From Candidatus Kuenenia sp. (lineage in GTDB: Bacteria; Planctomycetota; Planctomycetia; Planctomycetales; Planctomycetaceae): DNA of 34,660 bases. Both the position numbers and the translations under genes were made by a program. Positions within the stretch are counted from its first letter, which is position 1; the number at the start of each line of letters is the position of its first letter. The stretch is from NCBI GenBank assembly GCA_043722015.1, contig JAYSPO010001114.1:1-34660 (forward strand), given 5' to 3'. Below are positions 10,604 to 33,160 of the stretch, piece after piece. The notes below the pieces were generated by a model. The model saw only the letters and a program-made list of their open reading frames with translations, ran no database searches and was not told where the DNA came from.

Positions 10604-10975
10604 TTAGTAAACCGCCTGGTCGTTATTCCTGCTGCCTTGCGGTACACCGGGGGGAACACTCTCGGGGCCGACGGGAACGCCTTGCAGCAGGCGTTGTTCA
10701 GCGGCCTGGCGGGCGGTGCTGCGTGGACGTTCGTAACCCCTCGGGGAAGAATCCGTTGACGGACCGATGTCCGGATCAGGAAAGGGATCCTGCCGACTGT
10801 AGGCGGCGTTTTCAGCAGCCGGGAATTGACTGCACCAGGAAGGGAATCGAGTGTTCTGTGGATTCAGGCAGCCAGTGATACTTACCACTCCGACGCTCAC
10901 AAAATGCAGGAACCACGCCGACGTTCGATCACGAAGTCGGTTTGATTCTGCGTTGTGATTCGTCGTGGCATTCAT
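10604..10975 (-). CDS. Hypothetical small Pro-rich lipoprotein-like protein
   Basis: ATG 10975 gives MNATTNHNAESNRLRDRTSAWFLHFVSVGVVSITGC, a hydrophobic stretch followed by Cys, then a Pro/Gly-rich tail. There is no clear SD and no family I recognise. The longer listed ORF would overlap the end of the upstream ATPase gene. Confidence 0.35.
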   Translation of the reverse strand: MNATTNHNAESNRLRDRTSAWFLHFVSVGVVSITGCLNPQNTRFPSWCSQFPAAENAAYSRQDPFPDPDIGPSTDSSPRGYERPRSTARQAAEQRLLQGVPVGPESVPPGVPQGSRNNDQAVY

Positions 10976-11118
10976 AAAAATTGTATTCTGTTTGTTTTGA
11001 CACTCAGGAATGATTTCACTAACTTCCTCCCACGCAGATTTTTCTGCGGTCCCTTTGCATGGATGCGGGACGCGGCGAAGGCCACGGATGGCCGTTGCCG
11101 CATTTTGCGATCCACAGG

Positions 11119-14100
11119 TTATGCGGCTTTGAATGCACGCGCATTGGCCGCCCACTGAACCCATTCCGTCACTTCAGCAAGATCCGGCTTTCTGCTTTTG
11201 CGAATAATTCGTTCACCTTCTTTGGTGCTTGAAAACGGTTCGACAATGGCCAGCAGAGTTGCCGGGTTCTGTCCGGCCAGTCCTTCCGGGGTCGTGATCC
11301 CGCAGGCCACCAGAATCTGAGCATCGTGGCCACGCAGTTCCGGAATCTGACACATCAACCGCGATTGATGCTGCCATTGCTGAATCACTTGCGGCGTCAG
11401 GCGTCGATGGCTCAGCTTTTCGGAAATCCTTTCAGGTGTCATGTTCATCAGATCTTCCACCGTGCGAATGCCGATTGCTTCAAGCATCTGAACTGTCCGC
11501 GGTCCGATCGACGGTGCTTTTTCGATATTGCTGGTTCGATTGAGAAAGAATCGCAGACCACCGGAACGCTCAGCGACCTCCGAAACGTCAGCTTCTGCCT
11601 CAATGGTTTCCGTCCGTAATCGCGAGGTCTGACGACGGCGGCGTGCCAAGCGTTTTGCGCGGCGTTCTTCGACGTCAGCGTCCCCGCTGATCAGGCGACG
11701 ACGGCGGCTGGTACGCGGTAAACCTGAGTCCTGGTGACCGTGACCCTCACGCGACATCGCAGCCGTGGCACCTACGGAACTGGAATGGGATGCAGCCGTT
11801 GTGGTGCGCGGAACTGTACGCGGAGTTGATCGCACCGAAAACCGGGAACGATTATGACGGGCTTCATCAAGCGAACGGGTGAACTGACCGAAGCGAGCCC
11901 AGTTGATTGCCTGCTGACGATCGATCAGGCGTCCTCCGCGACGGTAGCGACTTCCGGACTCTGATCGCTGAAATTCCGACACTCGATCGAACACTGTTTC
12001 CGGACGCAGGCGGCTGAGTTCTTCGACGGTGCGAATCCCGGATGCGTACAGCAAAGCTGCATCACTGCGACGCAGCATCGGCACGCGAGTTGTCAATTCC
12101 GCCTGGCCCCGCAGTGCGTGTAGACGATCGACCGACAACTGGAAACCTTTCAAACGGGTCGTCTCCTGAAGCTGCGGAACCGTACGGCTCAGCAGATCAT
12201 CGATCGTCAAAATGCCGGATGTTCGCAGTGCTTCCAGCTCACCCAGCGTGATGCCGGCAAGGTCTTCCACACCGTGATCGACTTCCAGATAAAACAACCA
12301 GTTCGTGCCGTTCGGATGGATTGCCGCTTCGACCGGCTGCAGCGTCACCGGCTGGATCACGACCGGACTGACTTCCATGACCGGTTCGACGTACGCATGC
12401 AGAGTCGGCTGCGGCAGCACAGGTGGCAGCACGACGGGAGCAGGTTTGGGCTGTTCAGCGCGATGGTCAAACGTACGTACGTCAGCATTGAAACGAGCGA
12501 ACAGGTCACGCACATCTTTCTGACATGTGAAAAAGACGATCTGATGCCCCTCTTGAGCCAGCTCGGTCAGCAACGTCACCGCGGCATTTGCGCGTGCATC
12601 ATCCGATGTCACAAACACGTCGTCCAGAATCAGCGGCACATGTCCCTGAGTTTCCGAGCGTACCTGAATCAACGCCAATCGCAGCGCAAGGCCGACCTGA
12701 TCGCGCGTCCCGCGACTCAGTTGTGGCAGCGTCAGGTCTTCACTCGTATGCACGGTCTGAACCAGAATCCGATCCGGCACAGCGGCAGAGACTCTGCGGC
12801 ATTCTCCCTCGGTCAGTCGCTGAACGTACTGAGAGGCCAGTTCAAAAACTTTGGAATGACTGCGTCCCTTCAGGCGTTCGATCACTTCCCGCAAACTCGC
12901 TTCGGTACGATCCAACTGACGGCGATGATCTTCCAACAAGACAATTTCAGATTCCAACTGCGCGATTTGAGAGCGAAACGCATCCAGTTGTTCCAGCGTT
13001 GCCGCACCCGCCAGTTCCTGACGCAGCCGTTCCTGCAGCATGCGTTTGGTGTTGCGTGAATCTTCCGTTCCGCAGCGTTCAGCAACCAGGCGGCCACGTT
13101 CGGCTCGCAGACGTGCCAGTTGAGTTTCCACTTCTGCAACGGACCGATATCCGGACAAGCCCTGCGTGTCGGGACCAGACAATTCCTGATGCCCGGTAAA
13201 ACGACAGGCCAACTCGCTCTCTGGAACTGCACCTTCGGCAAGCACGTTTTCCGCTCGCGCCAGTTCCGCTCGCAGAGTTGCAATTTCGGATTCGAGCAGG
13301 CGTTCCATTTCAGCCGCGCCCGAATGGGTTCGTTCGGCAAGCATGGCCTGGAGCGATTCGAGATGTCGAGCGTTCGCTTGTTCGTGCTGACCGAAATATG
13401 AACATAACGCGGCAATTTCGCCACGCAAATGACGAACAACTTCGGCATCGTCCCTGCGTGCGGACTCGGAATGCGCGGATCCACCTAGGCGTTCCGTCAG
13501 AGTCTGTGTCCGTTCTTCCAGGCGAGAGACAATCGCGCGGATGGACTTTGCGGATTCCGCCGGCCGCATTGTGGCATCTCTCGCCGCTTGACGTGACGCG
13601 GTTTCGCGGGATATGAGTCCTCGAATTTCCCGCCACCTTTCCAGCCTGGCGGTGACCGTGCGAATTTCTCCTTCGATCGCCTGTCGGTTCAGTGGCAGTA
13701 CACTTCGACGACGAAGTTCGGCGAGGAGTTGTTCAAGCCGTAGAATTTCCGCATTGATCTCGCGACTACGAGCATCAATACTGTCGATACTGGCCGTTGC
13801 CGCATCGATTTCGCGAATGAGTTGTTCCACGCGCTCGGGCAGGTCAGCGGCAGGACGTCGAAGGGCTGCAATCTGGCCGTGCAGATCGCCCTGACGACGG
13901 CGATGTTCAGAGATGCGATGGACGATGCCGCCCTGCACTCCGTTTCCATCACGATCGCGAATCGTTTGAATCAGCGCGGCTTCAGCCTGCCGAAGTTCCG
14001 GATCATTGTCGCCGAGCCCCATGCCCGATTCCATACACAGTCGCGTCAGAAGTTCGAAGCGTTCCGCCTCTTCATAACCAACGGTGAAGACTTCACGAAA

Positions 14101-14469
14101 AACATCTTCAGTAACCCACGCCGGCAGCAGATTTCCCAGCCCTGAAGCTGAAAGTCGATCCAGTTCGTCGGTCACGGTGAATTGTTCGCTGGAACTTCCC
14201 ACCCCCACCCAGGAGCGACGCAGCGTGCGTGGGCCTCCCGCTGTCTGAATTCGCGCGTAGCCGGAGTCCGCATGAAGTTCGATCTGCGTCCACGGCGTGT
14301 TGCGCCGGTACCCGTACAGCAGGCCGCGCAGGAACCGGACAAATGTCGATTTTCCGGCACCATTCGGCCCGCAGAACACCGTCACGCGGTGCGACAGTTT
14401 TTCGACGGCAACGTTTTTGAGGGAACCAAATCGATCAATTCGAACATCCGTGAGTTGCATCACTGCCAT
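11119..14469 (-). CDS. SMC/Rad50/SbcC-YhaN-like coiled-coil ATPase with a C-terminal extension of two HhH (DUF4332-like) modules
   Basis: Walker A is GPNGAGKST (14344-14370). About 540 aa of Leu/Arg/Glu-rich coiled-coil-like sequence follow. Next come signature-like LSRGTRDQ, Walker B PLILDDVF and then IVFFTCQ. Beyond that are a Pro-rich linker, module 1 (about 11860-12297), an Arg/Ser-rich stretch, and module 2 (about 11134-11556, IEKAPSIGPRTVQMLEAIGIRTVEDL...GHDAQILVACGITTPEGLA). An alternative ATG at 14460 has better SD spacing (AAGGA). Confidence 0.85.
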   Translation of the reverse strand: MAVMQLTDVRIDRFGSLKNVAVEKLSHRVTVFCGPNGAGKSTFVRFLRGLLYGYRRNTPWTQIELHADSGYARIQTAGGPRTLRRSWVGVGSSSEQFTVTDELDRLSASGLGNLLPAWVTEDVFREVFTVGYEEAERFELLTRLCMESGMGLGDNDPELRQAEAALIQTIRDRDGNGVQGGIVHRISEHRRRQGDLHGQIAALRRPAADLPERVEQLIREIDAATASIDSIDARSREINAEILRLEQLLAELRRRSVLPLNRQAIEGEIRTVTARLERWREIRGLISRETASRQAARDATMRPAESAKSIRAIVSRLEERTQTLTERLGGSAHSESARRDDAEVVRHLRGEIAALCSYFGQHEQANARHLESLQAMLAERTHSGAAEMERLLESEIATLRAELARAENVLAEGAVPESELACRFTGHQELSGPDTQGLSGYRSVAEVETQLARLRAERGRLVAERCGTEDSRNTKRMLQERLRQELAGAATLEQLDAFRSQIAQLESEIVLLEDHRRQLDRTEASLREVIERLKGRSHSKVFELASQYVQRLTEGECRRVSAAVPDRILVQTVHTSEDLTLPQLSRGTRDQVGLALRLALIQVRSETQGHVPLILDDVFVTSDDARANAAVTLLTELAQEGHQIVFFTCQKDVRDLFARFNADVRTFDHRAEQPKPAPVVLPPVLPQPTLHAYVEPVMEVSPVVIQPVTLQPVEAAIHPNGTNWLFYLEVDHGVEDLAGITLGELEALRTSGILTIDDLLSRTVPQLQETTRLKGFQLSVDRLHALRGQAELTTRVPMLRRSDAALLYASGIRTVEELSRLRPETVFDRVSEFQRSESGSRYRRGGRLIDRQQAINWARFGQFTRSLDEARHNRSRFSVRSTPRTVPRTTTAASHSSSVGATAAMSREGHGHQDSGLPRTSRRRRLISGDADVEERRAKRLARRRRQTSRLRTETIEAEADVSEVAERSGGLRFFLNRTSNIEKAPSIGPRTVQMLEAIGIRTVEDLMNMTPERISEKLSHRRLTPQVIQQWQHQSRLMCQIPELRGHDAQILVACGITTPEGLAGQNPATLLAIVEPFSSTKEGERIIRKSRKPDLAEVTEWVQWAANARAFKAA

Positions 14470-14562
14470 CCTTAGCTTGAAATCAAGTGCTTTGTTTTTG
14501 CTTCGTCACTGGAAGACCTGGTCCTCGACCACGGGTCAGGTTTTTGTCATGGACAGCACGGT

Positions 14563-15690
14563 TTATGCCACCCGTCGCAGGAGATCCAGACCGACGGCCG
14601 CTTCGCTCCCCGCACCCAACGGAATTCCGGCGGAACTGTTCTCGATCAATCTGTTGCGATGGCCGAATTTCAGGATCCGCTCCCGCACGACTGCCGTAAA
14701 TTCCTTCGCAGCAATCGAAGGATGCTGACTGGCATCGACCGTGCTGTTGTCGGAAAACCGAATTCGATGCGGCCATGCTCCGGAATGCCCTGCGTGCAGA
14801 CTGCTCCGAAGATCCTTCAGCAGATCAAACTCACATAATGGTTCCATGACCGTTCCCGACAGCGTCAGCTGTCCATCGATCACCCATTCGACAACCATTG
14901 TGCAACGACCATTCGCGGACAACAATCGGCTGCGGTCATGGAGCAACTCGCCCAACTCCGATGCCGCCATTCCCTGTCGGCACGACACCAGTTCCAGAGC
15001 GAATCGAATCACATCCGTCACGCACGCGCGGGCAGTGAGCAATTGTCGCGACAGGTCGGCATCCACCAACTGGCAGCCGAAAGCCCCCCGCTCCAGCGGA
15101 CCGATGGACTGGGGACAACCGGCGGACATGCGCAGCAATCGGTCGTGTGCTGAGGCAACTCCATCAATGGAATCAGAAGTCGATGATGGCGTCAGCGATG
15201 GGACGGCAACGTATGCCAGATCAGCCAAAGGGCGCCGATCAGATTCCGTGCCGACTTCGATGCCCAGTGCGCCCGCGCGACCGCGAGTCGATGTTGGCGA
15301 CACTTGGTACTCGATTCGTTCAGCACCGTTTGACCAGACATCCAGGCGTTGTCCGGGGGCCACAAGAATTGCGTCCAATCGACGCAACGCAGCGTGGTCA
15401 GATTCCGGATGGCCAGCAATCACAAGTTGAATCCCGTGTTTCCGGAGGACCTGGGTCTGAGCTTTCAGCCATGTGATGGCTGGACCCAGATCCTGACTGG
15501 ATTCCGTTAATTTTCCGGCGATCAGCAGCAGGTGGCAGCGACCGGCGATGGCGGCTTCGATCACGTTGGTGACGGCCGTTCGAACCGCAGAACCAACTGC
15601 TTTTCGCAGCCAGTCGGGACTGTCGGAGAGCCCCGAGATTGGCGAACCAAGGCGAAGTGAGTCAGTATGTAAGAATCGAATGACAGACAT
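14563..15690 (-). CDS. SbcD/Mre11/YhaO-like protein with degenerate metallophosphoesterase motifs
   Basis: ATG 15690 is preceded by GGGAGG. The N-terminus VIRFLHTDSLRLGSP aligns with canonical ILHTSDWHLG / FIHAADLHLDSP but lacks the D and H. LLLIAGKLTE stands in for AGDLFD. LVIAGHPESD stands in for GNHD. The gene sits upstream of, and on the same strand as, the ATPase gene. Confidence 0.6.
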   Translation of the reverse strand: MSVIRFLHTDSLRLGSPISGLSDSPDWLRKAVGSAVRTAVTNVIEAAIAGRCHLLLIAGKLTESSQDLGPAITWLKAQTQVLRKHGIQLVIAGHPESDHAALRRLDAILVAPGQRLDVWSNGAERIEYQVSPTSTRGRAGALGIEVGTESDRRPLADLAYVAVPSLTPSSTSDSIDGVASAHDRLLRMSAGCPQSIGPLERGAFGCQLVDADLSRQLLTARACVTDVIRFALELVSCRQGMAASELGELLHDRSRLLSANGRCTMVVEWVIDGQLTLSGTVMEPLCEFDLLKDLRSSLHAGHSGAWPHRIRFSDNSTVDASQHPSIAAKEFTAVVRERILKFGHRNRLIENSSAGIPLGAGSEAAVGLDLLRRVA

Positions 15691-17509: not shown

Positions 17510-19045
17510 TCAACCCGTGCCAAGGCCGCGGTCGAAGGCTTCTAGTTCGCGCGCATACGTATCGGTGATGGTTTCGAGTGTCCTGCGGGAGATTTTCCAG
17601 GACGGCTGGTCTTCTGTGGCGCGGTTGCAGTGTTCGGTCAGCAGGCGATACAGAAATCGGAAAAGATGCCGAGGTACGCGCAGTTTCGCAAAGCGGGCAA
17701 TCAGATCTTCGCGAGACACGTCGTCTGCAAAGAAATCCCGAATCGTGGATTGGGACGTTTTCGCATTGCCTGCCGCATCGCCTGCAACGGTATCCTCAGG
17801 CTGACACGCGCGGATGCGATTTGTAGCCATGTCGAACAGCGACTCGCCCGTCCATTCCAGCGAATTGATCAGGTTCTGTTTGTCCAGGCGAGAGCGTTCG
17901 TAGAATTCTTTCTCCTCCCGGTTCAGAAAGTAGACGACGTCGCGCGGCAACAACATTTTGAAACCGATGCCCGGATGTTTCAGGAACTTATTGTCGAACA
18001 TCGACCACAGAAAATCCCGCATCCGCTCCGCTGACCCGTTGATCAGATGCGGTTCATCGACGCGATCCACCAGCACAATGATGCTGGTAAATCCCATCGG
18101 CTTCAGTAGTCGTTGAAGTTTGGAAAGTAGTTCGTAACGGTCATCGCTGCGATCGCGGGACGGCATCGGCTGGTCGTCGATTTCCGATGCCGGAAAACGC
18201 GCCAGAATTTTACGCAGCGACGACGTTCCGTGTTCCAGAATTCGCACCTGCTTTGCGATCTGTCGAGCCCGCCACCAGAGCGAGACCGTCCGTTTCAGAT
18301 ACGGAATCCAGCCGACCGCAATGATCACGTAAAGCCACCACGACTTGAGTGCACTCAGCGTTTTCAGACCGTCCGCCCGGAACCCGCGCAGAGCAAACAA
18401 CAGGACCATGATCGTGATCAGGACGCCGACCAGGAATCGCCAGTGGACCGTGGGTGTCAGAAAACCAATCCGCCAGCGAATGTCCTTCCAGCGCCGCCAG
18501 TGTGACTGATCTGACGATTGATCATAGAACGCCGCCAGCATGAGCAGATCCCGCTTGCGCTGACGTGGCAAGTCGCGAATCTGCTGCAGCGAGATATCCG
18601 GATCTGTTGTGTGTCGATCGGCGATGACGTTACACAAACGCCGTGTGCTGAGCGTCAACAGGGCGTCCATATGATCCCACAATCGCCATTCCTTCAATGC
18701 CAGATCCGGGTTTCGCTTACGGCCTCGCAGGCGATCGCGGAACGTATCCAGAAACGGATTCAGGTCATCGTAGCTGATAACGAAACACCGTTCGGCGGGA
18801 TACCTGTGATTGTGTTCCTTCAGGGCTGTAATCAGTTGCAGCCGAATGGCCGTCTTGCCTGAGCCTTTCTCTCCAAATACGATCGATGTACTGGGATTGC
18901 GGCAATCACCCAGGACTTTGTCCCATGCCGGATGATGAATCGTTTCTGCACAGTGCTGCTGGAAAATATGGTCCGACTGTGCGTCTTCCTGGCTGAACGG
19001 ATTGATGTTGACTCCGTAGTGTTCAAGGAATTGTTGAATCTTCAT
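17510..19045 (-). CDS. KAP-like P-loop NTPase with a membrane hairpin inserted in the NTPase domain
   Basis: Walker A is GEKGSGKT (18851-18874), followed by a beta-strand-like CFVISYDD. Two hydrophobic helices, FLVGVLITIMVLLFAL and WWLYVIIAVGWIPYL, lie at about 18290-18463. Walker B-like IIVLVDRVDE follows about 260 aa after Walker A. The N-terminus FLEHYGVNINPF resembles ExeA/KAP-type leaders. Confidence 0.6.
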   Translation of the reverse strand: MKIQQFLEHYGVNINPFSQEDAQSDHIFQQHCAETIHHPAWDKVLGDCRNPSTSIVFGEKGSGKTAIRLQLITALKEHNHRYPAERCFVISYDDLNPFLDTFRDRLRGRKRNPDLALKEWRLWDHMDALLTLSTRRLCNVIADRHTTDPDISLQQIRDLPRQRKRDLLMLAAFYDQSSDQSHWRRWKDIRWRIGFLTPTVHWRFLVGVLITIMVLLFALRGFRADGLKTLSALKSWWLYVIIAVGWIPYLKRTVSLWWRARQIAKQVRILEHGTSSLRKILARFPASEIDDQPMPSRDRSDDRYELLSKLQRLLKPMGFTSIIVLVDRVDEPHLINGSAERMRDFLWSMFDNKFLKHPGIGFKMLLPRDVVYFLNREEKEFYERSRLDKQNLINSLEWTGESLFDMATNRIRACQPEDTVAGDAAGNAKTSQSTIRDFFADDVSREDLIARFAKLRVPRHLFRFLYRLLTEHCNRATEDQPSWKISRRTLETITDTYARELEAFDRGLGTG

Positions 19046-22440: not shown

Positions 22441-22697
22441 TCCTACACACCCGCGTTTCGTCTCGACCAGCCCTTCGGCGATCACCACAGTCTCCACAAT
22501 CAGAGCAATGACAGGGCCTTAGCGTTAGCGATCACTCTGGCGCGGTGGTAGGATAATCCCCACAAAGTCCTTCGAAATTGCAATAAATTCGCTTGGTCAG
22601 GAAAGCTTTCGAAGGGGCTTTTTGGGTAGAAGGATTCATACCCGATGCATTTTACGGAGTGCCACTCGTTGTCCCGCAGCCAGGTCAGGAGTCTCCC

Positions 22698-23192
22698 GTG
22701 CCAGTAAGTTCTGACTCTCAGAATCCAGCATCCCAGGTGGATTCTTCCCACCGCGAACCCTTGGCTGTGATCGGGATCGGGTGTCGGCTCCCTGGCGGCA
22801 TCAATTCGGCAGTCGAGTACTGGGACGCTTTACTCCGGGGACTCAACGCCATCTGCGACGTGCCGGAAGACCGCTGGACACATTCGCGGTTTCACGACAC
22901 CAATCCGGAAAAGTTTGGCTGCATCAGGAACGCGCGGGGCGGCTTTATCAACGGCGTCGACCAGTTCGACGCCGAGTTCTTCGGATACTTTCCTGCCGAA
23001 GCCCAGCGGATCGATCCGCAGCAGCGATTACTTCTCGAAGTCACTCACGAAGCAATGGAAGATGCCGGTCTGCGGCGCGATCAGCTGGATGGCGATTGCC
23101 GGCGGCGTCAACGTGATGCTGCGTCCGGAACCGTCGATCATGTTGTCCAAGGGTGGATTTCTGAATCCGGACCAGTACTGCAAGGCGTTTGA
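22698..23192 (+). pseudogene. Type I PKS 5' fragment carrying the N-terminal part of the ketosynthase domain, up to the deletion/frameshift junction
   Basis: GTG 22698 is preceded by AGGAG (22687-22691). The KS N-terminal consensus is EPLAVIGIGCRLPGG...DRWTHSRFHD...GGFINGVDQFDAEFFGYFPAEAQRIDPQQRLLLEVTHEAMEDAG. Homology stops at ...RRDQLDG (23093), and the rest of this frame is non-homologous until the stop at 23192. Confidence 0.85.
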
Positions 23193-26100
23193 CGCAGCTG
23201 CGAATGGCTACGTTCGCGGTGAAGGCGTGGGCATCGTGATCCTGAAGCCGCTCTGTAAGGCGATCGCCGATGGTGACCAGATTTACGCCTGCGTGCGTGC
23301 CACGGCAGCGAATCAGGACGGCTATCTGCCGGAGGGCTTCACCGTGCCCAACGTGTTTTCACAGGTGGCATTGCTGAGGACAGTCTACGCCGAAGCTGGG
23401 ATAGATCCTTCGTTGGTGGACTTTGTTGAAGCCCACGGCACAGGTACGCCCGTAGGCGACCCTGTCGAAGCCTCGGCGCTTGGTTCTGTCCTGGGGTTTG
23501 AGCGAACCGCCGAACAGCCCAACCTGATCATCGGTTCCGTGAAGACGAACCTCGGACATCTGGAAGGTGCCGCAGGCATTGCGGGATTTATCAAAGCGGT
23601 ACTCACAGCGCATCACGGTGTTGCTCCACCGAACTTGCATTTCCACGAACCAAATCCGGCGATTCCATGGGAGCAATATCGTCTGGAGGTGCCTACGCAG
23701 CCGACTTCGCTCAAACGCGGCGACCACCCATTGACAGTGGGTGTCAATTCGTTTGGCGCAGGAGGTGCCAACGCTCATGTCGTGTTGCAATCGCTGGCCA
23801 CAATCAGCCGCAGAGCGCTAGCCCCCGGTTCGGACATGCTTCCCGATAGCAAACCGGACGCTCGCGCGTACCGGCTGATGCCACCTGAACCCCTCGTTCC
23901 TCGCGGCACGTTGTACACCATCAGTTCCTCCAACCGCGATGCATTGCGAACACTGGCACTGCGGCATGCCGACTTCCTGGTTGAAAATCCGCATCGGCTC
24001 GAGGACATCGCCTTTTCCGCATTCACTCGGCGAAGCCATTACGCACAGCTGCTGGCGGTTGTTGGTAAATCTGCAAAGGACGTGGAGAGCCAACTTCGCA
24101 GGTTTGCTGATGGTGAGGCGGATACAACAACCCAAATAACGACGGTCACCCGTCGGAAGGAACCCAAACTCGCCTTCGTATTTTCCGGTCAGGGCGGCCA
24201 GTGGGCTCTGATGGGACTGCAGTTGATGCAGCGTGAACCGGTCTTTCGCCACTGGATGGAAGAAATTGACGCGAGTTTTCAGGGACTGGCGGGCTGGTCC
24301 CTGCTGGACGAGATTCGCAGGGAGGATGGTGAGTCCCGGGTGAACGACACGGTCGTTGTGCAGCCGGCGGTCATGGCGATCCAGATCGCGATGGTCAAAC
24401 TTTACGAGCACTACGGAATCCGGCCAGAAGGAATTGTCGGCCACTCAATCGGCGAAGTCGCGGCGGGATTTGCCGCTGGAGCGTTGACGCTCGAACAAGC
24501 GGTCCAGGTCATTTATCATCGTTCTCAGGCTCAGAATCTGGCTTCCGGCAAAGGCGGTATGCTGGCGGTCGGGCTCACGCAGGAAGACGCCCGCACTCTG
24601 ATCGCGGGTTACGACGGTCGCGTTTCCATCGGAGCCGTAAACGGTCCGGAGATGCTCACATTGTCCGGCGATACAGAACCACTGCAACAGATTGCACAGG
24701 TGCTGGAAACTCGTGGTGTCTTTAATCGACCGGTCCGGGTTCAGGTGGCGTATCACAGCCATCACATGGAACCAATCCGGAATGTCATGCTCGATGCGTT
24801 GATCCATGTGCAAGGGGTCAAAGCCACGATCCCGCTGTACTCCACTGTCACCGGCCATCGCGAAAACGGCGTGCATTTCAATGCGGAGTACTGGTTTCAG
24901 AACGCGCGCCAGCCGGTTCTGTTCACGGACGCCCTGAGCACTATGCTCAAGGACCACTACGACACGTTTGTGGAAATCGGCCCGCATCCTGTGCTGGTGA
25001 GCGGCTCTGAAGCTCTGTTCAGCAAGCGTGACACCGATGCCGTGATGGCTCCGTCGATGAACCGCCGGGATCCCGAGGTGACTGTGTTCCTCCAGAGCCT
25101 GGCACGACTTGCCGCGCGCGGACTTCAGCCGGATGTGACGAGGTTGTATGGTTCCGATTGCGGCTATGTCCGGTTGCCAAATTATCCATGGCAGCACCAT
25201 CGACACTGGTTCGAATCCCCTGCGGCCGCAGCAATGCGCAAGGGGCCTTTCGAGCATCCCTTCCTGAAGCGTAAGACGCAAATGGTCACCGAAGACGGCT
25301 TGGCCGTGTGGGAGGCGGCCCTGAGCGTACAGAAGTTCCCGTACCTTCGCGATCATCAGGTGGATGGCGAAATCGTCTTCCCGGCCACCGGCCACCTGGA
25401 ACTCGCATGGGCTGTGGCAAGTGAACAGTTTCGACACGAACCGTTTTTCCTTGAGAACATTCATTTCGACCTGCCGCTGATCCTGCCCGACAGCAGCCGT
25501 CATCCGCTGGACGTCCGGCTGGAGATCGTTTCCGGCGAAGGTGACTACCGCATCTGCAGTCGAGCAGCCGACAACGCAGTTGAGAATCCATGGACAAAGC
25601 ATTCGTCCGGCCGTATCAATACAGTCCATGACCGATTTGAAAAATCGACAGCCTCGCTCAATGACCTTCGGCAGCATTTTTCTGAAGGCGATGCATTGGC
25701 CGCAGATGCGTTCTACGAGACGATCAGCGCAGCGGGGCTGGCGTATGGAGAGAAATTCCGCTGCATTCAGGAACTGTGGCATCGTGGCCATGAGATGCTC
25801 GCGCAACTGCGGCTGCCTGATGAACTGTTGCACGAGTCGCAGCGGAACGCCATTCACCCGGCAATCCTTGATGCGTGTCTGCATGCTGTATTCGCCGATG
25901 TTCATCGCAACGGCGACGTTCATCGCATCTATCTGCCCTATCGTGTTGACCGGATCCGGTATTACGGCCAACCGACGCGGGATTTGTGGGCCAGCGTTCG
26001 AGTCACGCGCAACGATGAGCACTACCTTCATTCGGATACGTTGATCTTTGATGATGCCGGACTGTTGGTTGCCGAGGTGCTGGGCTTGACCTGTAAGAGA

Positions 26101-29100
26101 CTCACCGGTGCTGGTTCACATGCTGCCGACCGGTTGTATGAGGGTTGTTACGAGTACCGCTGGTTGCCCTCAAAACGTGACCAGAATCTTCACGGTCGGA
26201 TCTTCGATTACACGTCAGCCGTGCTGATTTCTGATGCGTCGGGCGTCGCAGAAGAACTGGCAGCACGGCTTGCGGCAGAGAGCATTCAGCCGCTGCTAAT
26301 TCCTTTCGGCGAAACACGCCAATTCGACGAACTATTGGCAAACGTGCCCCTGGATCGGCGGACGTTGATTGTGTTCGCGGCTGGGTTATCATCGATCCCC
26401 GCCGACTGGAAAGGACTTGCCCACTGCCCTGCTGTTCCGTTGCTGCTGCAACTTGCACAAACCCTGCAAAAGCGGGAAGGAGTGCCGCGTCTGTTCGTGG
26501 TCACCAACGGCGCGGCCGGTGTGCCGGGCGACCAGCATCTTGACCTTGGACAGGCGATTCTGCACGGACTGGCGCGTGTCATCAACAACGAATCCCCGAA
26601 TGTTCCGCTGACAGTGATCGATCTGAGTACCGCCATCCGGCCGTGCGAGATCGATGCGTTGTCCTGGGAACTGCTCCACGGTCGCCGGGATCGAGACGAG
26701 TCGGAAATTGCGATTCGCGGTGACGAAAGATTTGTCAGACAGTTGTTTCCCGTGGATCTCGACGCCGCCGAACAGGCAGCGACCTCGGAAGCAGAAGGAT
26801 TCGGCGGCGGCTACCGAGCCGACCTGCGTGATCCCGGTGTGCTCGATCATATCGTCTTTCGTTGTCTTCCACCCAGCAACCCGGGCGAAGACGAGGTGGA
26901 AATCGCCGTCAGGGCTGCGGCGTTGAACTTTAAGGACATCATGAATGCCATGGGCTTGCTGCCCGAGAAGGCCGTCGCTGGCGGACTGACTGGACATCGC
27001 CTCGGTCTGGAGGTTGCAGGTCGTGTTCTGCGTACAGGATGTTCAGTCCGGCATGTTCAGGCGGGCGATGAAGTGATCGCCCGCGTGTCTGAGGGTTTTT
27101 GCGGTCGAGTGACGACGCCGGGGCATTATGTGGTGGTCCGACCAAAGCAACTGACACCTGCGCAGGCGGCAGCGATTCCCCTTGTGTACATCACGGCCTG
27201 GTACTCGCTGTGCTACCTGTCTCGTATGGCCCGTGGCGAGACCGTCTTGATTCATTCGGCCGCTGGCGGAGTGGGTGGCGCGGCGATTCCGTTAGCGCGG
27301 CGGGTCGGTGCCACCGTGATCGCCACGGCTGGGACGAAGGAGAAGCGCGACTACCTGCGGCAATTGGGGGTCGAGCATGTCTTTGATTCGCGCTCTCTCG
27401 ACTTCTACAATCACGTCATGGATGTGACGGGCGGGCGGGGTGTGGATATCGTGCTTAATTCCCTGACGGGGCGTTTTATCCCTCAAAGCCTGAAATGCCT
27501 CGCACCGTTTGGCCGTTTCGTCGAAATCGGTAAGTCGGATCTTTATCGCAACACCAAGCTCAGTTTGGAGCGGCTCGGTGAGAACATCTCTTTCTTTGTA
27601 GTCGATGTCGATCGGCTGGCCGTCCATCAGCCGGATTTGCATCGACGGGCGATGACGGAGGTGATTGGCATGTTCGAGCGGGGCGAATTGGCGCCGCACG
27701 AAATCACCGAATTCCCAATTTCCAAGCTTCCCGATGCCCTCAGATTCATGACACGCGCTGCGTATCGGGGCAAGATTGTCATGAACATGCAGCATGATCG
27801 CGTGCGGACTCTGCCGTCCCGAAACGCTGCATTCCGGCCCGATCGCACTTACTTAATTTCTGGCGGTGCCAGTGGATTCGGGTTGGAGATTGCGCGCTGG
27901 TTGGCCAACTGCGGTGCGCGGTATCTGGTTCTGCTTAGCCGCAGCGGCCCGAAGAGTGACGCAGATCGGATCGCCGTCGAGACGATGAAAGAGTTCGGCG
28001 TCGAAGTCAGAATGGCTCAGGCAGACATCACTGACTCGGAGGCCATCGAAAGCTTGTTTCAGCAAATTGACGAGGAGATGCCTCCGCTGGCCGGAGTTAT
28101 CCACGGTGCCGCAGTGCTCGACGATGCGTCGATTCCCACGATGGATATGGAGCGTTTCACGCGAGTCTTTAACCCCAAGGCCCAGGGTGCCTGGAACCTG
28201 CACGAGACGACAGTCGCCGGTGGTGCACAGTTGGATTTCTTCCTGATGCTCTCTTCCATTTCGTCTGTGCTGGGGCTTTATGGCCAGGCAAATTATGCCT
28301 CGGCCAATTACTTCCAGGACGCGCTGGCTCAATACCGCCGACAACTTGGACTGCCGGCAACCTCCGTCAATCTTGGCGTCCTGGGCAGCTACGCTGGCAT
28401 GTCCAATTCTGAAAACGATAAACAGGACATCGTGGGCATTCTGGAGTCTCAGGGTATGTACGTCATGCCACTGAAAGATGTGCTTGCCAAGCTGGAATCG
28501 GCTTTGATTCAGCAGCCTGTCCAGCGGATGACCGCTCGGCTTGACTGGCCATGGTTTCGCATCGCCTATCCTCATCTGGCGCGGGATACTCGCTTCATCG
28601 AGGTGATGAGTGACGCCGCCCTGGCGCGTGCATTTCGCCCCAAAGGTACTGGCCTGCGCACAGAACTGGCGGAAATGGAAAGTAGCGAGCGAGTTGAACG
28701 ACTGCAGCAGGAACTGAAGAACAGGCTGGCGCGAATCCTTGACGCTTCTCCGGAGCGGTTCGATGTTTCTAGGTCCATCGATAGCTTCGGCCTGGATTCG
28801 CTGATGCTGACAGACCTGCAGGTCTCAATCGTCCGCGCGCTCAACGTCACTGTCCCGCTCATTAAGCTTCTCAAAGGACCGAGCATAGCGACGCTTGCCG
28901 CAGAATTGTTGGCTCAGATAGAGAACAGTGACTCGGACGATGTGGGCAACATGCAGGACGCCTCCGTTGCTGCCGAAGCCTTCACGCTGGCGGATCTGGA
29001 CGGAGTGCGAGTCATAAACCGCTGGCTCATTCGGGGAAACTGCGATGCCGATGCACCCATCCGCCTGATCTGCTTTCATTCCATGGGAGTCGGTGCGTCA

Positions 29101-29805
29101 CTGTTCACGAACTTTCTGCTTAATCCGCCGGATGGCTGTGACATTCTAGCTGTGCAAACTCCAGGACGCGAGAACCGGATTGATGAGCCGGTAGCAGAAA
29201 GCCTCGACGATTTGGCCGATCAGGTTGTAGCACAGCTATTGCCCTTATTCGATCGGCCTGTGGTCATGTGGGGGCACAGTTACGGCGGCATCGTGGCCAG
29301 CGAGGTCATTCGCCGCTTGCGCGAGCGCCACTACCGAGAGCCTGTTCATTACGTGGTGTCGGGTACGCTTCCGCCACATCTGGTTCACCTGCTACAAAAG
29401 CGGGATACTTTGCTCAAGGCAATGGTTGCAGACAACAGCCCGGAATATCTGATATCGCTGTCACGGTATGTAGATGACCCGGAGTTCATTAAGTCGATCC
29501 TGCCTCTGATGCGGCGGGATTATCCTCTGCTGCAGAGCTTCCGCTATCTGCCTCATGTGCCTGTCAGTTACCCAATCACAGCCTTCGCTGCTCGTCAAGA
29601 CGACATGGTGTATTCTGACGAAATTCGCGAGTGGGCTCAACACACGTGCGGTGGTTTTGAACTGATTGAAGTTGATGGTGACCATTGGTTCCTGAATCGT
29701 AACCGCGAACTCATCGTCGCCACGTTGCAGGACATCGCTGGAAGCCACATTGGAAATGACGCCGAGCATTTTGCTCAGGCATTGACCACAGGCGTGGACG
29801 AGTAA
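22915..29805 (+). CDS. Type I polyketide synthase: KS (C-terminal part)-AT-DH-ER-KR-ACP-TE. Homologous sequence begins at 23089 and continues the 22698 fragment in another frame.
   Basis: KS C-half: IAGGVNVML, EAHGTGTPVGDP, KTNLGHLEGAAG (23089 to about 23788). AT: FVFSGQGGQW, GHSIGE (Ser at 24445), VAYHSHHM. DH: HPFL...LRDHQVDGEIVFPATG (His at 25354). ER: LIHSAAGGVGGAAI. KR: ISGGASGFGLEIA, LDD, YASAN. ACP: FGLDSL (Ser at 28798). TE: GHSYGG (about 29272-29289), GDHWF. Confidence 0.95.
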   Translation: MAASGTRGAALSTASTSSTPSSSDTFLPKPSGSIRSSDYFSKSLTKQWKMPVCGAISWMAIAGGVNVMLRPEPSIMLSKGGFLNPDQYCKAFDAAANGYVRGEGVGIVILKPLCKAIADGDQIYACVRATAANQDGYLPEGFTVPNVFSQVALLRTVYAEAGIDPSLVDFVEAHGTGTPVGDPVEASALGSVLGFERTAEQPNLIIGSVKTNLGHLEGAAGIAGFIKAVLTAHHGVAPPNLHFHEPNPAIPWEQYRLEVPTQPTSLKRGDHPLTVGVNSFGAGGANAHVVLQSLATISRRALAPGSDMLPDSKPDARAYRLMPPEPLVPRGTLYTISSSNRDALRTLALRHADFLVENPHRLEDIAFSAFTRRSHYAQLLAVVGKSAKDVESQLRRFADGEADTTTQITTVTRRKEPKLAFVFSGQGGQWALMGLQLMQREPVFRHWMEEIDASFQGLAGWSLLDEIRREDGESRVNDTVVVQPAVMAIQIAMVKLYEHYGIRPEGIVGHSIGEVAAGFAAGALTLEQAVQVIYHRSQAQNLASGKGGMLAVGLTQEDARTLIAGYDGRVSIGAVNGPEMLTLSGDTEPLQQIAQVLETRGVFNRPVRVQVAYHSHHMEPIRNVMLDALIHVQGVKATIPLYSTVTGHRENGVHFNAEYWFQNARQPVLFTDALSTMLKDHYDTFVEIGPHPVLVSGSEALFSKRDTDAVMAPSMNRRDPEVTVFLQSLARLAARGLQPDVTRLYGSDCGYVRLPNYPWQHHRHWFESPAAAAMRKGPFEHPFLKRKTQMVTEDGLAVWEAALSVQKFPYLRDHQVDGEIVFPATGHLELAWAVASEQFRHEPFFLENIHFDLPLILPDSSRHPLDVRLEIVSGEGDYRICSRAADNAVENPWTKHSSGRINTVHDRFEKSTASLNDLRQHFSEGDALAADAFYETISAAGLAYGEKFRCIQELWHRGHEMLAQLRLPDELLHESQRNAIHPAILDACLHAVFADVHRNGDVHRIYLPYRVDRIRYYGQPTRDLWASVRVTRNDEHYLHSDTLIFDDAGLLVAEVLGLTCKRLTGAGSHAADRLYEGCYEYRWLPSKRDQNLHGRIFDYTSAVLISDASGVAEELAARLAAESIQPLLIPFGETRQFDELLANVPLDRRTLIVFAAGLSSIPADWKGLAHCPAVPLLLQLAQTLQKREGVPRLFVVTNGAAGVPGDQHLDLGQAILHGLARVINNESPNVPLTVIDLSTAIRPCEIDALSWELLHGRRDRDESEIAIRGDERFVRQLFPVDLDAAEQAATSEAEGFGGGYRADLRDPGVLDHIVFRCLPPSNPGEDEVEIAVRAAALNFKDIMNAMGLLPEKAVAGGLTGHRLGLEVAGRVLRTGCSVRHVQAGDEVIARVSEGFCGRVTTPGHYVVVRPKQLTPAQAAAIPLVYITAWYSLCYLSRMARGETVLIHSAAGGVGGAAIPLARRVGATVIATAGTKEKRDYLRQLGVEHVFDSRSLDFYNHVMDVTGGRGVDIVLNSLTGRFIPQSLKCLAPFGRFVEIGKSDLYRNTKLSLERLGENISFFVVDVDRLAVHQPDLHRRAMTEVIGMFERGELAPHEITEFPISKLPDALRFMTRAAYRGKIVMNMQHDRVRTLPSRNAAFRPDRTYLISGGASGFGLEIARWLANCGARYLVLLSRSGPKSDADRIAVETMKEFGVEVRMAQADITDSEAIESLFQQIDEEMPPLAGVIHGAAVLDDASIPTMDMERFTRVFNPKAQGAWNLHETTVAGGAQLDFFLMLSSISSVLGLYGQANYASANYFQDALAQYRRQLGLPATSVNLGVLGSYAGMSNSENDKQDIVGILESQGMYVMPLKDVLAKLESALIQQPVQRMTARLDWPWFRIAYPHLARDTRFIEVMSDAALARAFRPKGTGLRTELAEMESSERVERLQQELKNRLARILDASPERFDVSRSIDSFGLDSLMLTDLQVSIVRALNVTVPLIKLLKGPSIATLAAELLAQIENSDSDDVGNMQDASVAAEAFTLADLDGVRVINRWLIRGNCDADAPIRLICFHSMGVGASLFTNFLLNPPDGCDILAVQTPGRENRIDEPVAESLDDLADQVVAQLLPLFDRPVVMWGHSYGGIVASEVIRRLRERHYREPVHYVVSGTLPPHLVHLLQKRDTLLKAMVADNSPEYLISLSRYVDDPEFIKSILPLMRRDYPLLQSFRYLPHVPVSYPITAFAARQDDMVYSDEIREWAQHTCGGFELIEVDGDHWFLNRNRELIVATLQDIAGSHIGNDAEHFAQALTTGVDE

Positions 29806-29878: not shown

Positions 29879-32800
29879 TCACTCAGGAAACAAGATCTGG
29901 TAGTCCAGTGCGAAATCAGCACCCAGTGACTGCAAAGCTTGCCGGGCGGTGGTCAAGTCCTGCTGAGCTTCCGGCCAGCCATACTGCTTTCCGACCTGGC
30001 CGCGGGCGAGCAGCGTTTGGGCATGCTCAAACCGTGCCCCTTGTCTTTCTGCGACCTTAAGGCTCTCATCCAGATTCTTGCGTGCCTGACGAGCCTGCCC
30101 CTGCAGCGCGGCCATGAGACCACATTCCCGCAATGCATGCGGCAAGTCGGTCTGAAACGTTCTGGCAACCGACAAAGCTTGCCGCGCAGCTCGATGGGCG
30201 CTTTGAACAAGCTGCCGACGGCCATCTGGCGCAAAACTAGTTGACGTTCGCAATTGCAACCGATGCACCGTCGCCAGCCACGTCACAACGGGCGACACCC
30301 AGGCGTTCATGCCATTCTTCCGGCACACCGCGTGGGCTTGCATCAAAAAACGAATAGCCTCATGCAGTTCGTTCTCGCGAAAATGGCGGACGGCTTCAGC
30401 CAGCAATACAAGTGTGGTCGCCCACACATCATTTCTTTCCTTTTGCAGTTCTCGCTCGACAATCTCAACGGGCAATTGCCCGCCTGAGGCCCGCGACCAG
30501 ACGTCCAGAGCGAACCCCGCGACCTTATCATCGCCCATCGCACTGCACGCCTCGTACAACTCCTTGGATTCGGCGACCGCGTCTGCCAAATTCCCCTTTC
30601 GATAAAGTGCATTGGCGCTTTGCCACCACGCCATGTTTCTCTCCCAAAAATCGCCGGTCCGTTCGAGAAGTCGGATCGCTTCCCGGCAACTGCTGATGCA
30701 CTCGTCAAATCTCGCCGAGGCGAAGAACACCACGCCGAGGTAATGCAGCGATTGCCCTTGTCCGCAAACATCGCCCAGACCCTTCCGTATTTCGAGGGAC
30801 TTTCTCCCGAAGGTTTCTCCGCGACTGAGCCACGGAATCAGGGACAACACGGGTGCATGGCTCGCCCACGCGTAACCCAATTCGAGTGTGGGTGGATACC
30901 GTTCGGCGAGGTTTATAGAACGCAGATGCGTCCACAAACAGGGGATTTTGCCACGGTCGAAAAAGTAGGCTCGGGCCAAATGGACATGCACGCCGATGGC
31001 CAGCAACTCGTTTTTAGTGGCTGGCAGACTGCGACGAGCCAGAAACAGTTTTGGAAGCATCGTATGCAACGTTTGAACAGCCACTTCCCAGGCAAGTAAT
31101 AGCAAGAATCCCTCGGTACGGGTTGGAATTCTCCGACCCAGCAACCGGAGCGAACGCTCCATCGCGTCAATGCCGACTTTGTTGTCGCCTTGCTTGAAGG
31201 CGAGTTCGCCGAGCTTCCCTTCGATCTGGGCACGCGTGAGATCGTCACATGCCAAGAGCCTTGCCGCCTGGAACATTTGGGCTGCGGCCTGGTAACGACC
31301 ACGCAGCATGAGCACCTCGCCCAGGCTCTCGGCGACGCGATAGCGTGTCGCGTCGTCTGCACGCTCCGCGCCGCGCTCCGCTATCCGAAAAAGTTGTTCC
31401 GCAATTTCCAGGGCGTATTGCGATCGGGCTTGTCCAGCCATGGCCATCGCATACGGGAATGCCAGAGCCGATTCTCCTGCGGCATCGAAGTGGTAAGCCA
31501 GATCAAAGAAGTGCTTTGATGCCTGGATCCCTGCACCACCGGCCTTTTGGTTGTTAATCGCGGTGGAAAATCCGGTTGATGAATCGATGACAGGATTGAC
31601 ACCACTTTCGGTCGGCGGGATTGCCGATTCGAGAACGCCCGCAATCCGGTGATGGAGATCCCTCAATGCGTCGGCAGGCAAATGATTCAGGATCGTCTCG
31701 CGGATACGGTCGTGGTAGGTCTCGATCTCTTCCGCCTGGGCCGTGCCGCTGCTGCGGATCAGACGACCTGAACGCAGCACTGCCATCGCGCCACGTTCAT
31801 CAAGGCTCAAATCGGATGCCTGACGTGCCTCAGCAAGCCTGAGTGGCTGGCCAGACACCGCAACCACTTCAAGCAGGCGGCGTGGCTCCGCAGGCAACGC
31901 CTGGATGCGGGTCCACAAGACGTCGTCGAGAACAACAGCATGGGAGTTCGAGGTCTCGGCAACGTCCATGTTGGCGCCAACACATTGCACCAGTTCGTGG
32001 ACGAAGAATGGATTGCCACTCGACTCGCGCGCGATCGTCTCCGCCAGCGCCTGACTCGCGGAATCACGGCGGCCCAGCAGCGTCAAAGCCAGCTCGCAGG
32101 CTTCGTCATGGTCGAGCGAATCAACGGAGACCTGACGCTGATCAATCGCTGTCCCGAATTTTTCCAGCGCTCGGTGCAGGATCGCGAGACAGGGGCTTGT
32201 GTCCGCGTCTTCACTGCGGTAGCAAGCGAGCAGCATCAACATCGGCGCATCCGGCGGTCGCAATATCTCCACCAGTTGCGTCACGCCGTCGAGATCGCCC
32301 CATTGCAGATCATCAATGAACAGGACCAACGGCTTCCGATCACCGAGTCGGGCCAACAACTCACGCAACGCCTCGAAGGCCCGGCGACGCAGTTCATGCG
32401 CATCCGAAATCTCCACTGTTCTGCTGGGCGCTTCGGCGACTGCGGCCACACGCTGCAGAACGGGAAAGACCTGTGCAAGGACTTGAGCTTCTCTCGGCAG
32501 CAAGGCCTGGGCTTCATGTGTCGGGATGCGGCGGAGATACCGGCTCAGAGCGTCAACCAGACTGTCCAGAGCCTTGTACGGCACCGATTCGCGTTCATAG
32601 CACTTGCCAGCGAGCACGACCGCTTCGCCGTGCTGCACCAGATTATCCAAAAAATGCTGAGCCAGCATACTCTTTCCGGCTCCCGATCGACCATGCAGAC
32701 AGACGACTGCAGTACGCCCCTTCTGCACAGCGCTGAATGACTCGATCAGGTTCGCCATTTGCGATTCGCGGCCGACAAAAGTCGCTCGCTGCCCTGACAC

Positions 32801-33160
32801 CACGTTCCTGATGACGGTTGAGTTGCTTGAGGGCGTCTCCGTCAACCGCTGCAACACCTCACTTCCACTGGGACGTGCTTCAGGGGACTTTCGCAGCAAG
32901 GAAACACACAGGTGGTTGAGATCCACGGGAATGCCGGGGACTAAATCCGCGGGCGCTGCAGGTTCCCGCTGCTGCTTGTCGATAAGAACCTGAATCGGTG
33001 AACCAGTGAACGGCAGTTTGCCGGTCAGAGCTTCATACAACATCACACCGACGCTGTACCAGTCGCTGGCGGTGGACTGCGGCTGGCGGCCTGCTCGGGG
33101 GCCATGTATGCGACGGTCCCAGTCACATGCTGTTCCGTACTTTGATGGACACCTTTCCAA
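29879..33160 (-). CDS. C-terminal ~1070 aa of a Ser/Thr kinase-AAA(STAND-like)-TPR protein; a frameshifted continuation of 33043..33960
   Basis: From ...GRQPQSTASDWYSVGVMLYEALTGKLPF (kinase subdomains IX-XI). Then an AAA_16-like NTPase: FVGRESQ...VVCLHGRSGAGKSML and Walker B LVLFIDDLQWGD. A long TPR-like helical repeat region follows. Confidence 0.85.
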   Translation of the reverse strand: MERCPSKYGTACDWDRRIHGPRAGRQPQSTASDWYSVGVMLYEALTGKLPFTGSPIQVLIDKQQREPAAPADLVPGIPVDLNHLCVSLLRKSPEARPSGSEVLQRLTETPSSNSTVIRNVVSGQRATFVGRESQMANLIESFSAVQKGRTAVVCLHGRSGAGKSMLAQHFLDNLVQHGEAVVLAGKCYERESVPYKALDSLVDALSRYLRRIPTHEAQALLPREAQVLAQVFPVLQRVAAVAEAPSRTVEISDAHELRRRAFEALRELLARLGDRKPLVLFIDDLQWGDLDGVTQLVEILRPPDAPMLMLLACYRSEDADTSPCLAILHRALEKFGTAIDQRQVSVDSLDHDEACELALTLLGRRDSASQALAETIARESSGNPFFVHELVQCVGANMDVAETSNSHAVVLDDVLWTRIQALPAEPRRLLEVVAVSGQPLRLAEARQASDLSLDERGAMAVLRSGRLIRSSGTAQAEEIETYHDRIRETILNHLPADALRDLHHRIAGVLESAIPPTESGVNPVIDSSTGFSTAINNQKAGGAGIQASKHFFDLAYHFDAAGESALAFPYAMAMAGQARSQYALEIAEQLFRIAERGAERADDATRYRVAESLGEVLMLRGRYQAAAQMFQAARLLACDDLTRAQIEGKLGELAFKQGDNKVGIDAMERSLRLLGRRIPTRTEGFLLLLAWEVAVQTLHTMLPKLFLARRSLPATKNELLAIGVHVHLARAYFFDRGKIPCLWTHLRSINLAERYPPTLELGYAWASHAPVLSLIPWLSRGETFGRKSLEIRKGLGDVCGQGQSLHYLGVVFFASARFDECISSCREAIRLLERTGDFWERNMAWWQSANALYRKGNLADAVAESKELYEACSAMGDDKVAGFALDVWSRASGGQLPVEIVERELQKERNDVWATTLVLLAEAVRHFRENELHEAIRFLMQAHAVCRKNGMNAWVSPVVTWLATVHRLQLRTSTSFAPDGRRQLVQSAHRAARQALSVARTFQTDLPHALRECGLMAALQGQARQARKNLDESLKVAERQGARFEHAQTLLARGQVGKQYGWPEAQQDLTTARQALQSLGADFALDYQILFPE

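Follow-up and report, generated by a model that had tools for sequence, protein, structure and literature searches.

A gene pair of Planctomycetaceae as a candidate DNA-holding derivative of the Mre11-Rad50 machinery

What does an Mre11-Rad50-type gene pair do when its nuclease subunit no longer carries the residues for cutting DNA? This question was raised by two adjacent genes on contig JAYSPO010001114.1 of Candidatus Kuenenia sp. (assembly GCA_043722015.1), of which positions 1 to 34,660 were analysed (the window). Gene A (14563-15690, minus strand) is an open reading frame (ORF) of 375 aa, coding for a pseudo-nuclease with the Mre11/SbcD/YhaO fold. Gene B (11119-14469, minus strand) codes for a YhaN/SbcE-type Rad50-like ATPase of 1116 aa with a C-terminal double DUF4332 extension. 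A preliminary description made from the sequence had placed the two genes about 95 nt apart on the same strand and had concluded that they are not a canonical DNA-end-processing SbcCD. The ORF check gave a spacing of 93 nt, with B downstream of A, and the core conclusion was supported by the analysis that follows. The pair is most likely a non-nucleolytic DNA clamp or tether derived from Mre11-Rad50. All features of A and B described below lie on the minus strand, and their coordinates are those of the window.

Protein A: active site, fold and ancestry

The catalytic and metal-binding residues of SbcD were traced in A by a MAFFT alignment of A with 48 family members, 85 Metallophos-type relatives and Escherichia coli SbcD, and separately with hhalign. 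Independently, both alignments found none of the eight residues kept. D8 of SbcD is replaced by S11 in A, H10 by R13, D48 by K60, N83 by P95, H84 by E96, H222 by S165 and H224 by T167, and H184 corresponds to V146 (MAFFT) or T148 (hhalign). The degenerate motif I reads HTDSLRLG (15646-15669; residues 8-15), motif II reads AGKLTE (15502-15519; residues 58-63), with K60 at the place of the bridging Asp and E63 for the second Asp, and motif III reads GHPESD (15397-15414; residues 93-98). All metal-ligand motifs that can be aligned are thus substituted, as had been noticed beforehand, and the strings stand where they had been read.

The replacements in motifs I and II are kept across the A family (Arg13 in 41 of 42 members, Arg or Lys60 in 36 of 42). 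Motif III, IV and V positions drift freely among the members, and since they vary inside the family, the motif III positions are unconstrained. H8, D10, E63 and H302 are invariant, and H182/D183 are mostly conserved. The ratio of non-synonymous to synonymous substitution rates (dN/dS) of A against seven relatives was 0.07-0.15, indicating purifying selection. Because A has the Mre11 fold and none of the eight catalytic residues, yet is under purifying selection, it is a maintained pseudo-nuclease. This supports the prediction that the nuclease subunit is catalytically dead.

The fold was recognised from structure and from profile comparison. Searches with the single sequence and with the family profile against Pfam, NCBIfam, PADLOC and PDB sequences gave nothing useful; matches to Sortase and DUF1110 were weak, below the cut-offs, and were disregarded. 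Pfam Metallophos (PF00149) did not match A even at an E-value of 1. The 79 homologue clusters of A are all unannotated or "hypothetical"; where an organism is given, the sources are metagenome-assembled genomes (MAGs) of Planctomycetota. An AlphaFold2 model was built from a 26-sequence alignment, with a predicted local distance difference test score (pLDDT) of 85.5 and a predicted template modelling (TM) score of 0.78. The top 50 Foldseek matches of this model in the PDB were all Mre11/SbcD structures, covered at near full length, with TM scores of 0.42-0.50 when normalised by query length. They included 3qg5_C (E 6e-8) and E. coli SbcD 7yzo (query-normalised TM 0.50), and the structural match took in the capping domain and the C-terminal helices of Mre11.

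A profile search of 1.84 billion cluster representatives retrieved about 60 members of the A family itself (E < 1e-30), followed by about 1,400 more distant representatives, typically of about 410 aa. Pfam Metallophos matched six of the seven distant relatives of about 404-426 aa that were scanned. Homologues of the ~410-aa relatives are named "DNA repair exonuclease", "SbcD" or similar, and occur in Pirellulales, Thermoguttaceae and other Planctomycetota. In the profile-profile comparison by hhalign, the A family matched E. coli SbcD together with these nearest relatives at 99.8% probability (E 4e-29, 334 columns). With the Foldseek result, this bears out the Mre11-like fold that had been proposed for the upstream protein. 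The two C-terminal helices of A (14566-14715; residues 326-343 and 363-374, from the AlphaFold2 secondary structure and conservation), the last of which is highly conserved, are probably the ATPase-binding element, the counterpart of the Rad50-binding domain of Mre11.

Protein B: head, arm and tails

The N-terminus of B scored above the Pfam cut-offs for AAA_23 (38.0 bits, cut-off 27) and AAA_27 (28.0 bits, cut-off 22). Its C-lobe aligned with Pyrococcus Rad50 over the signature, Walker B and H-loop, and its distant homologues are "YhaN" or AAA_27 proteins. Walker A (GPNGAGKST; 14344-14370, residues 34-42) is intact. The signature LSRGTRDQ (12697-12720, residues 584-591), of the YhaN type LSRGTxxQ, and the Walker B/D-loop region LILDDVF (12613-12633, residues 613-619) are likewise present as first read. 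The H-loop is FFTCQ (12520-12534, residues 646-650), with Gln650 in place of the His found in YhaN-type relatives (FTCH). The earlier assignment of a Gln to this position holds relative to these nearest canonical relatives. In a pairwise alignment with Pyrococcus Rad50 the H-loop His fell one residue earlier, on Cys649; this placement was set aside for the family-level alignment to the FTCH relatives.

Of 92 B-family clusters, 56 have Q at the H-loop His position, 21 have R and only 5 retain H (His missing in 87). Both Walker motifs are intact in 82 of the 92. In an A-B fusion (see below) and a few other lineages, the ATPase motifs (Walker A, signature, Walker B, H-loop) have all degenerated, and DUF4332 is kept. 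The preliminary description had proposed an ATP-driven clamp. A Rad50/YhaN-type ATPase was recovered, but the ATP drive is doubtful, because the H-loop His is mostly missing, the Walker motifs are intact in 82 of 92 clusters, and DUF4332 is better conserved than the head.

An AlphaFold2 model of B (pLDDT 77.7) showed a Rad50-like split head, helices at residues 155-406 and 444-552, and a disordered apex loop at 408-441. In Foldseek, Rad50, Lamassu LmuB, MukB, Smc5/6 and JetC matched this model at similar scores. The helical coiled-coil region (12814-14007, residues 155-552) does not reach the length seen in the relatives and is without a hydrophobic central domain: over 19 aa, the hydropathy of B peaks at 1.01, and that of the YhaN-type relatives at 1.78-2.71.

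No CxxC motif was found anywhere in B, and the earlier statement that a zinc hook is missing is literally correct. The apex loop does contain a conserved Cys422-x4-His427 (13189-13206), which was kept in 87 of the 92 clusters and takes the form CxCxxH in deep branches. This motif is a candidate hook analogue, which may bind zinc. A second pair, C356...H362 (LCxYxxxHE; 13384-13404), lies inside the long helix 335-406, with Cys356 kept in 86 and His362 in 79 of the 92 clusters.

The C-terminal extension is 450 aa long. It begins with a Pro/Val-rich linker (12295-12471, residues 667-725), disordered at pLDDT < 50, followed by DUF4332 module 1, a tandem helix-hairpin-helix (HhH; 11860-12294, residues 726-870). 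An Arg/Ser/Thr-rich, mostly disordered basic linker with 23 K+R per 100 aa (11551-11859, residues 871-973) leads to DUF4332 module 2 (11122-11550, residues 974-1116), where HHH_5, Cdd1 and TfoX_C matched. Pfam assigned DUF4332 (PF14229) to two stretches of the tail at E 5e-40, and HHH_5 (43 bits), Cdd1 (37.5 bits) and TfoX_C (31.4 bits) were above their cut-offs. The two modules matched each other (E 1e-16) and were modelled at pLDDT > 90. The addition of HhH modules to the ATPase, as first suspected, was therefore confirmed, and DNA binding by DUF4332 is probable, judging from its HhH-type Pfam matches.

Mean column identity was 0.72-0.88 in the DUF4332 modules and about 0.45-0.7 in the head. 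Both genes had dN/dS values of 0.07-0.16, and module 1, with the lowest (0.03-0.07), is the most constrained part of B. Met4 of the ORF (MQLTD; position 14460) is where the homologues of B start, and AAGGA stands just 5' of that ATG. The true start may be this Met4, giving a product of 1113 aa.

Linkage, genomic context and relation to known systems

A scan of species-representative genomes yielded 49 loci, nearly all labelled Planctomycetota. The labels were Planctomycetaceae, Planctomycetales and Fuerstiella, and some were "Candidatus Kuenenia" or "Chitinophaga". Adjacency was counted on the about 45 loci having enough downstream DNA. At every one of them, including Fuerstiella, the next gene after A is a same-strand homologue of B, so that the pair is syntenic in related Planctomycetaceae genomes, a point that had been named beforehand as a check. 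B is full length with both DUF4332 modules in nearly all loci spanning the gene; it is split in one (L006) and shortened in another (L016). The pairing persists at identities as low as 33% (A) and 38% (B), and the divergences of A and B track each other across loci. The same pairing was found by exact protein look-up on two contigs whose homologues are more distant. Gene A is present in the cultured Fuerstiella marisgermanici (WP_077027815.1), and Fuerstiella MAGs carry the full pair.

In one lineage, A and B are fused into a protein of 1391 aa (P0112, also P0350-P0352), found in Logan, JGI, ENA and NCBI assemblies. Fusion P0112 keeps only residues 1-315 of A and lacks the last ~60 residues, with the two C-terminal helices; both DUF4332 modules are intact. 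Loss of the helices in the fused protein is consistent with helices that would otherwise tether A to B. Two arrangements were seen among deep DUF4332-bearing ATPases. In the first, a partner of ~440 aa is already without several ligands (FRFLHASDLQLD, LAGGALN), and in the second, no partner is encoded directly upstream. Two deep DUF4332 ATPases, at locus L057 (P0444) and on the P0445 contig, have the Walker B LILND (Asp to Asn) and retain the H-loop His. Neither has an Mre11-like gene directly upstream, and the whole of locus L057 contains none; therefore, the ATPase can exist without a linked partner.

No conserved third gene was found in the 6-kb flanks of 45 loci, where no flanking family occurred in more than 8 of the 45, and a third component of the pair was rejected. 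Association with mobile elements was rejected as well: A had no relatives in the phage collection, and the plasmid search gave only weak N-terminal matches to "DNA repair exonuclease" genes of Rhizobiales megaplasmids. The variable metabolic neighbours, the missing third gene and the missing phage and plasmid relatives argue for a chromosomally inherited two-gene module and not for a defence island.

In the window, the GC content of the A/B region is the same as that of its surroundings, and promoter and terminator scans gave nothing above shuffled expectation. The neighbours are metabolic or housekeeping genes (M19 dipeptidase, Rieske protein, 3-keto-disaccharide hydrolase, AlgH, CutC), and the neighbour genes of the window are common only to loci with at least 79% identity. 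Two genes upstream of A on the same strand, a 511-aa ORF (17510-19045) has a P-loop (GEKGSGKT) and no Pfam match; it is not kept beside the pair at other loci. A 186-aa ORF (10604-11164, minus strand), also with no Pfam match, overlaps the 3' end of B by 46 nt. Its counterparts downstream of B recur in close relatives only, where any sequence would be conserved, and it is probably not a gene.

Two further genes of the window stand apart from the pair. A Ser/Thr kinase-AAA_16-TPR gene is apparently split into two overlapping reading frames (29879-33160 and 33043-33960, both minus strand), which divide the kinase domain into an N-terminal and a C-terminal part; the split may reflect a frameshift, a pseudogene or a sequencing error. 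On the plus strand, 22915-29805 encodes a type I polyketide synthase of 2296 aa (KS-AT-DH-ER-KR-ACP-TE). Its KS domain is cut N-terminally by the ORF call; the gene probably starts further upstream, perhaps within the ORF at 22593-23192.

Among known systems, the YhaO/YhaN (SbcF/SbcE) pair comes closest to A-B. As in A-B, a phosphoesterase-fold gene lies there directly upstream of the ATPase gene, and both A and B find their nearest sequence relatives in the Planctomycetota versions of this pair. YhaN-type proteins share with B the AAA_23/AAA_27 matches, the LSRGTxxQ signature, the LDD Walker B and the lack of a CxxC hook. A differs in having none of the eight catalytic residues and no Metallophos match. 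B differs in its much shorter helical region without a central hydrophobic domain, and in FTCQ for FTCH; its apex Cys-x4-His and its two C-terminal DUF4332 modules do not occur in YhaN-type proteins. The hydrophobic central domain is the hallmark of Bacillus subtilis SbcE (PMC2811018). A-B departs from the defining features of YhaO/YhaN twice, in the active site and in the central domain together with the H-loop.

In the neighbouring ~410-aa family, each member is followed by an AAA_27 ATPase of 1130-1170 aa, which lacks DUF4332 and has a hydrophobic central segment and an FTCH H-loop. Midway along the coiled coil of the YhaN-type ATPases at two such loci (L054, 6631-10134; L055, 9366-12764), about 40-50 aa are strongly hydrophobic. 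This stretch resembles a membrane hairpin and agrees with the "central domain" of B. subtilis SbcE, which was reported to be insoluble. The active site of the ~410-aa family (P0138-P0227, P0228-P0345; L053-L056), whose names are "DNA repair exonuclease/SbcD", is itself incomplete. Motif III has changed from GNHD to GGxxD, and the first motif V His is Gly in 77 of 85 members. D8, H10, D48 and H224 are mostly kept, with H10 changed to R or D48 to N/G in several members. This family may bind only one metal, or it may be drifting towards inactivity. The label "DNA repair exonuclease", which the preliminary description had expected as a misannotation of the pair, was found on this family and not on A-B, whose public names are "hypothetical protein" (A) and "DUF4332 domain-containing protein" (B).

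SbcCD/Mre11-Rad50 resembles A-B in the fold of A, in the Rad50-like head and antiparallel helical arm of B, and in the operon logic. Compared with it, A-B lacks the dinuclear metal site, the CxxC zinc hook and the H-loop His, and B has the extra HhH modules. Natural Mre11-Rad50 fusions are known (PMC3175470) and parallel the fusion P0112.

Lamassu, which evolved from SbcCD and whose long LmuC was derived from the C-terminal domain of SbcD (PMC12663957), has an SMC/Rad50-like ATPase that is comparable in size (about 650 aa), short-armed and likewise without CxxC. It shares the SbcCD ancestry and has a partner that comes from a non-catalytic part of SbcD. A-B differs from it in having DUF4332 modules, no effector gene and no defence context. 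A is a complete inactivated Mre11 fold and not an SbcD C-terminal fragment or a helix-turn-helix-like LmuC.

A further likeness to A is found in inactivated calcineurin-like phosphoesterase scaffolds, such as the B subunits of eukaryotic replicative DNA polymerases and Vps29. In these, the metallophosphoesterase fold was kept as a structural subunit after the metal ligands were lost. They belong to unrelated complexes, and we know of none that is paired with a Rad50-like ATPase.

Possible functions of the pair

We hold with moderate confidence that A-B is an Mre11-Rad50-type complex which arose from a Planctomycetota YhaO/YhaN (SbcF/SbcE-like) pair and was turned from cutting DNA to holding it. 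In such a complex, A would dimerise and dock on B through its C-terminal helices, serving as a structural gate or scaffold. ATP binding would engage two B heads and produce a long-lived clamp. In ABC ATPases, loss of the H-loop His slows hydrolysis, and closed B heads would be long-lived because hydrolysis would be slow without this residue. The HhH modules and the basic linker would hold duplex DNA non-specifically, and the apex Cys/His would join two B arms, possibly through zinc. Such a complex would tether or bridge chromosomal DNA under the control of ATP and leave the ends unresected.

Three points weigh against this proposal. About 10% of the B relatives have no ATP-binding motifs, and ATP gating therefore cannot be essential family-wide. 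The predicted DNA binding by DUF4332 is drawn from HhH-type Pfam matches alone. Finally, the invariant H8, D10, E63 and H302 of A could in principle form a non-canonical site.

The likely role of a DNA-holding A-B is chromosome organisation or break-end tethering in Planctomycetaceae, and the data are about equally compatible with chromosome organisation and with nuclease-independent tethering of breaks. A more specific version is tentative and, on present evidence, rather unlikely. It sees A-B as a chromosome organiser of Planctomycetaceae, in which a nuclease-dead Mre11 dimer and a short-armed Rad50-like ATPase, united by a new Cys/His (possibly zinc) hook, bridge or compact DNA through the HhH tails. 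ATP would be a slow switch and not a motor, and the complex would be SMC-like, having arisen independently of SMC, MukB and MksB.

The leading alternative, which is unlikely, is that A-B is still a double-strand-break repair complex, in which A-B recognises and tethers the ends and the cutting falls to a recruited nuclease or helicase whose gene lies elsewhere. Such a complex would be similar to Mre11-Rad50 in its nuclease-independent tethering and signalling roles. The descent of A-B from a YhaO/YhaN-type pair is in line with a repair function, as that family takes part in break repair in B. subtilis (PMC2811018). The ATP-binding motifs, intact in 82 of 92 B relatives, also favour it, and the HhH modules fit DNA binding. 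However, no nuclease or helicase gene is conserved beside the pair in the 45 loci, and some lineages have lost the ATPase motifs and retained DUF4332. The repair reading also overlaps strongly with a DNA-holding complex as proposed above, from which it differs only in biological role.

An anti-phage or anti-plasmid sensor of the Lamassu/Wadjet kind, with its effector elsewhere or replaced by DNA sequestration, is improbable. The PADLOC LmuB model matched B (E 9.5e-17, residues 21-657), LmuB structures ranked 2, 4, 6, 7 and 9 among the Foldseek matches of B, and Lamassu is itself of SbcCD origin (PMC12663957). However, Rad50, MukB and Smc5/6 scored about as well as LmuB, and neither an LmuA-like effector, nor an LmuC match, nor a PADLOC match for A was found; the partner A is a full-length Mre11 fold. 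The metabolic neighbours change between clades with no third gene conserved in the 45 loci, the distribution resembles vertical descent inside one bacterial family, and there are no phage or plasmid relatives. Membership in Lamassu was rejected for want of an effector, LmuC and a defence context. A defence role is thus less likely than the other two roles first proposed for the pair, DNA sensing and chromosome organisation: with no effector, island, third gene or phage and plasmid relatives, anti-mobile-element defence is the least supported of the three.

It is still more improbable that A remains an enzyme, with a re-wired site, with or without metal, made of H8, D10, E63 and H302 and the mostly conserved H182/D183. 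The invariance or near-invariance of these residues speaks for such a site, as does the ~410-aa family, which is already without motif III and the first motif V His, so that non-canonical chemistry may pre-date the clade. Yet all eight canonical positions are lost, basic residues (R13, K/R60) occupy two former metal-ligand places, the motif III, IV and V positions vary freely in the A family, and Metallophos fails to match A at the permissive E-value given above.

The last reading, a decaying and functionless relic of a repair operon, would account for the catalytic motifs lost in A and the ATPase motifs lost in some B lineages, but it is very improbable and was rejected on dN/dS (about 0.1 in both genes), and the ORFs are intact in nearly all of the ~45 species-level loci (one split and one shortened B) down to 33% identity, under strict adjacency and with new domains gained and kept.

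The DNA-holding complex that we favour bears on how the Mre11-Rad50 machinery can be taken apart by evolution. What defines Mre11-Rad50 is that an ATP-driven clamp and a nuclease are coupled. In A-B, selection would have kept the whole two-subunit architecture long after the nuclease chemistry was deleted, while the ATPase was weakened and predicted DNA-binding tails were added. With the architecture kept and the chemistry gone, A-B would be a natural separation-of-function mutant for tethering, bridging and sensing, and a second route, besides Lamassu, for repurposing SbcCD-type machines. It also offers a testable context for the uncharacterised DUF4332 domain, and flags a wider Planctomycetota "DNA repair exonuclease" family with an incomplete active site. 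As A is present in the cultured F. marisgermanici and the full pair in Fuerstiella MAGs, experiments are feasible. If this ATPase clamp with a nuclease-dead partner is a true chromosome organiser, it would be a new SMC-like organiser of the nucleoid, separate from SMC, MukB and MksB.

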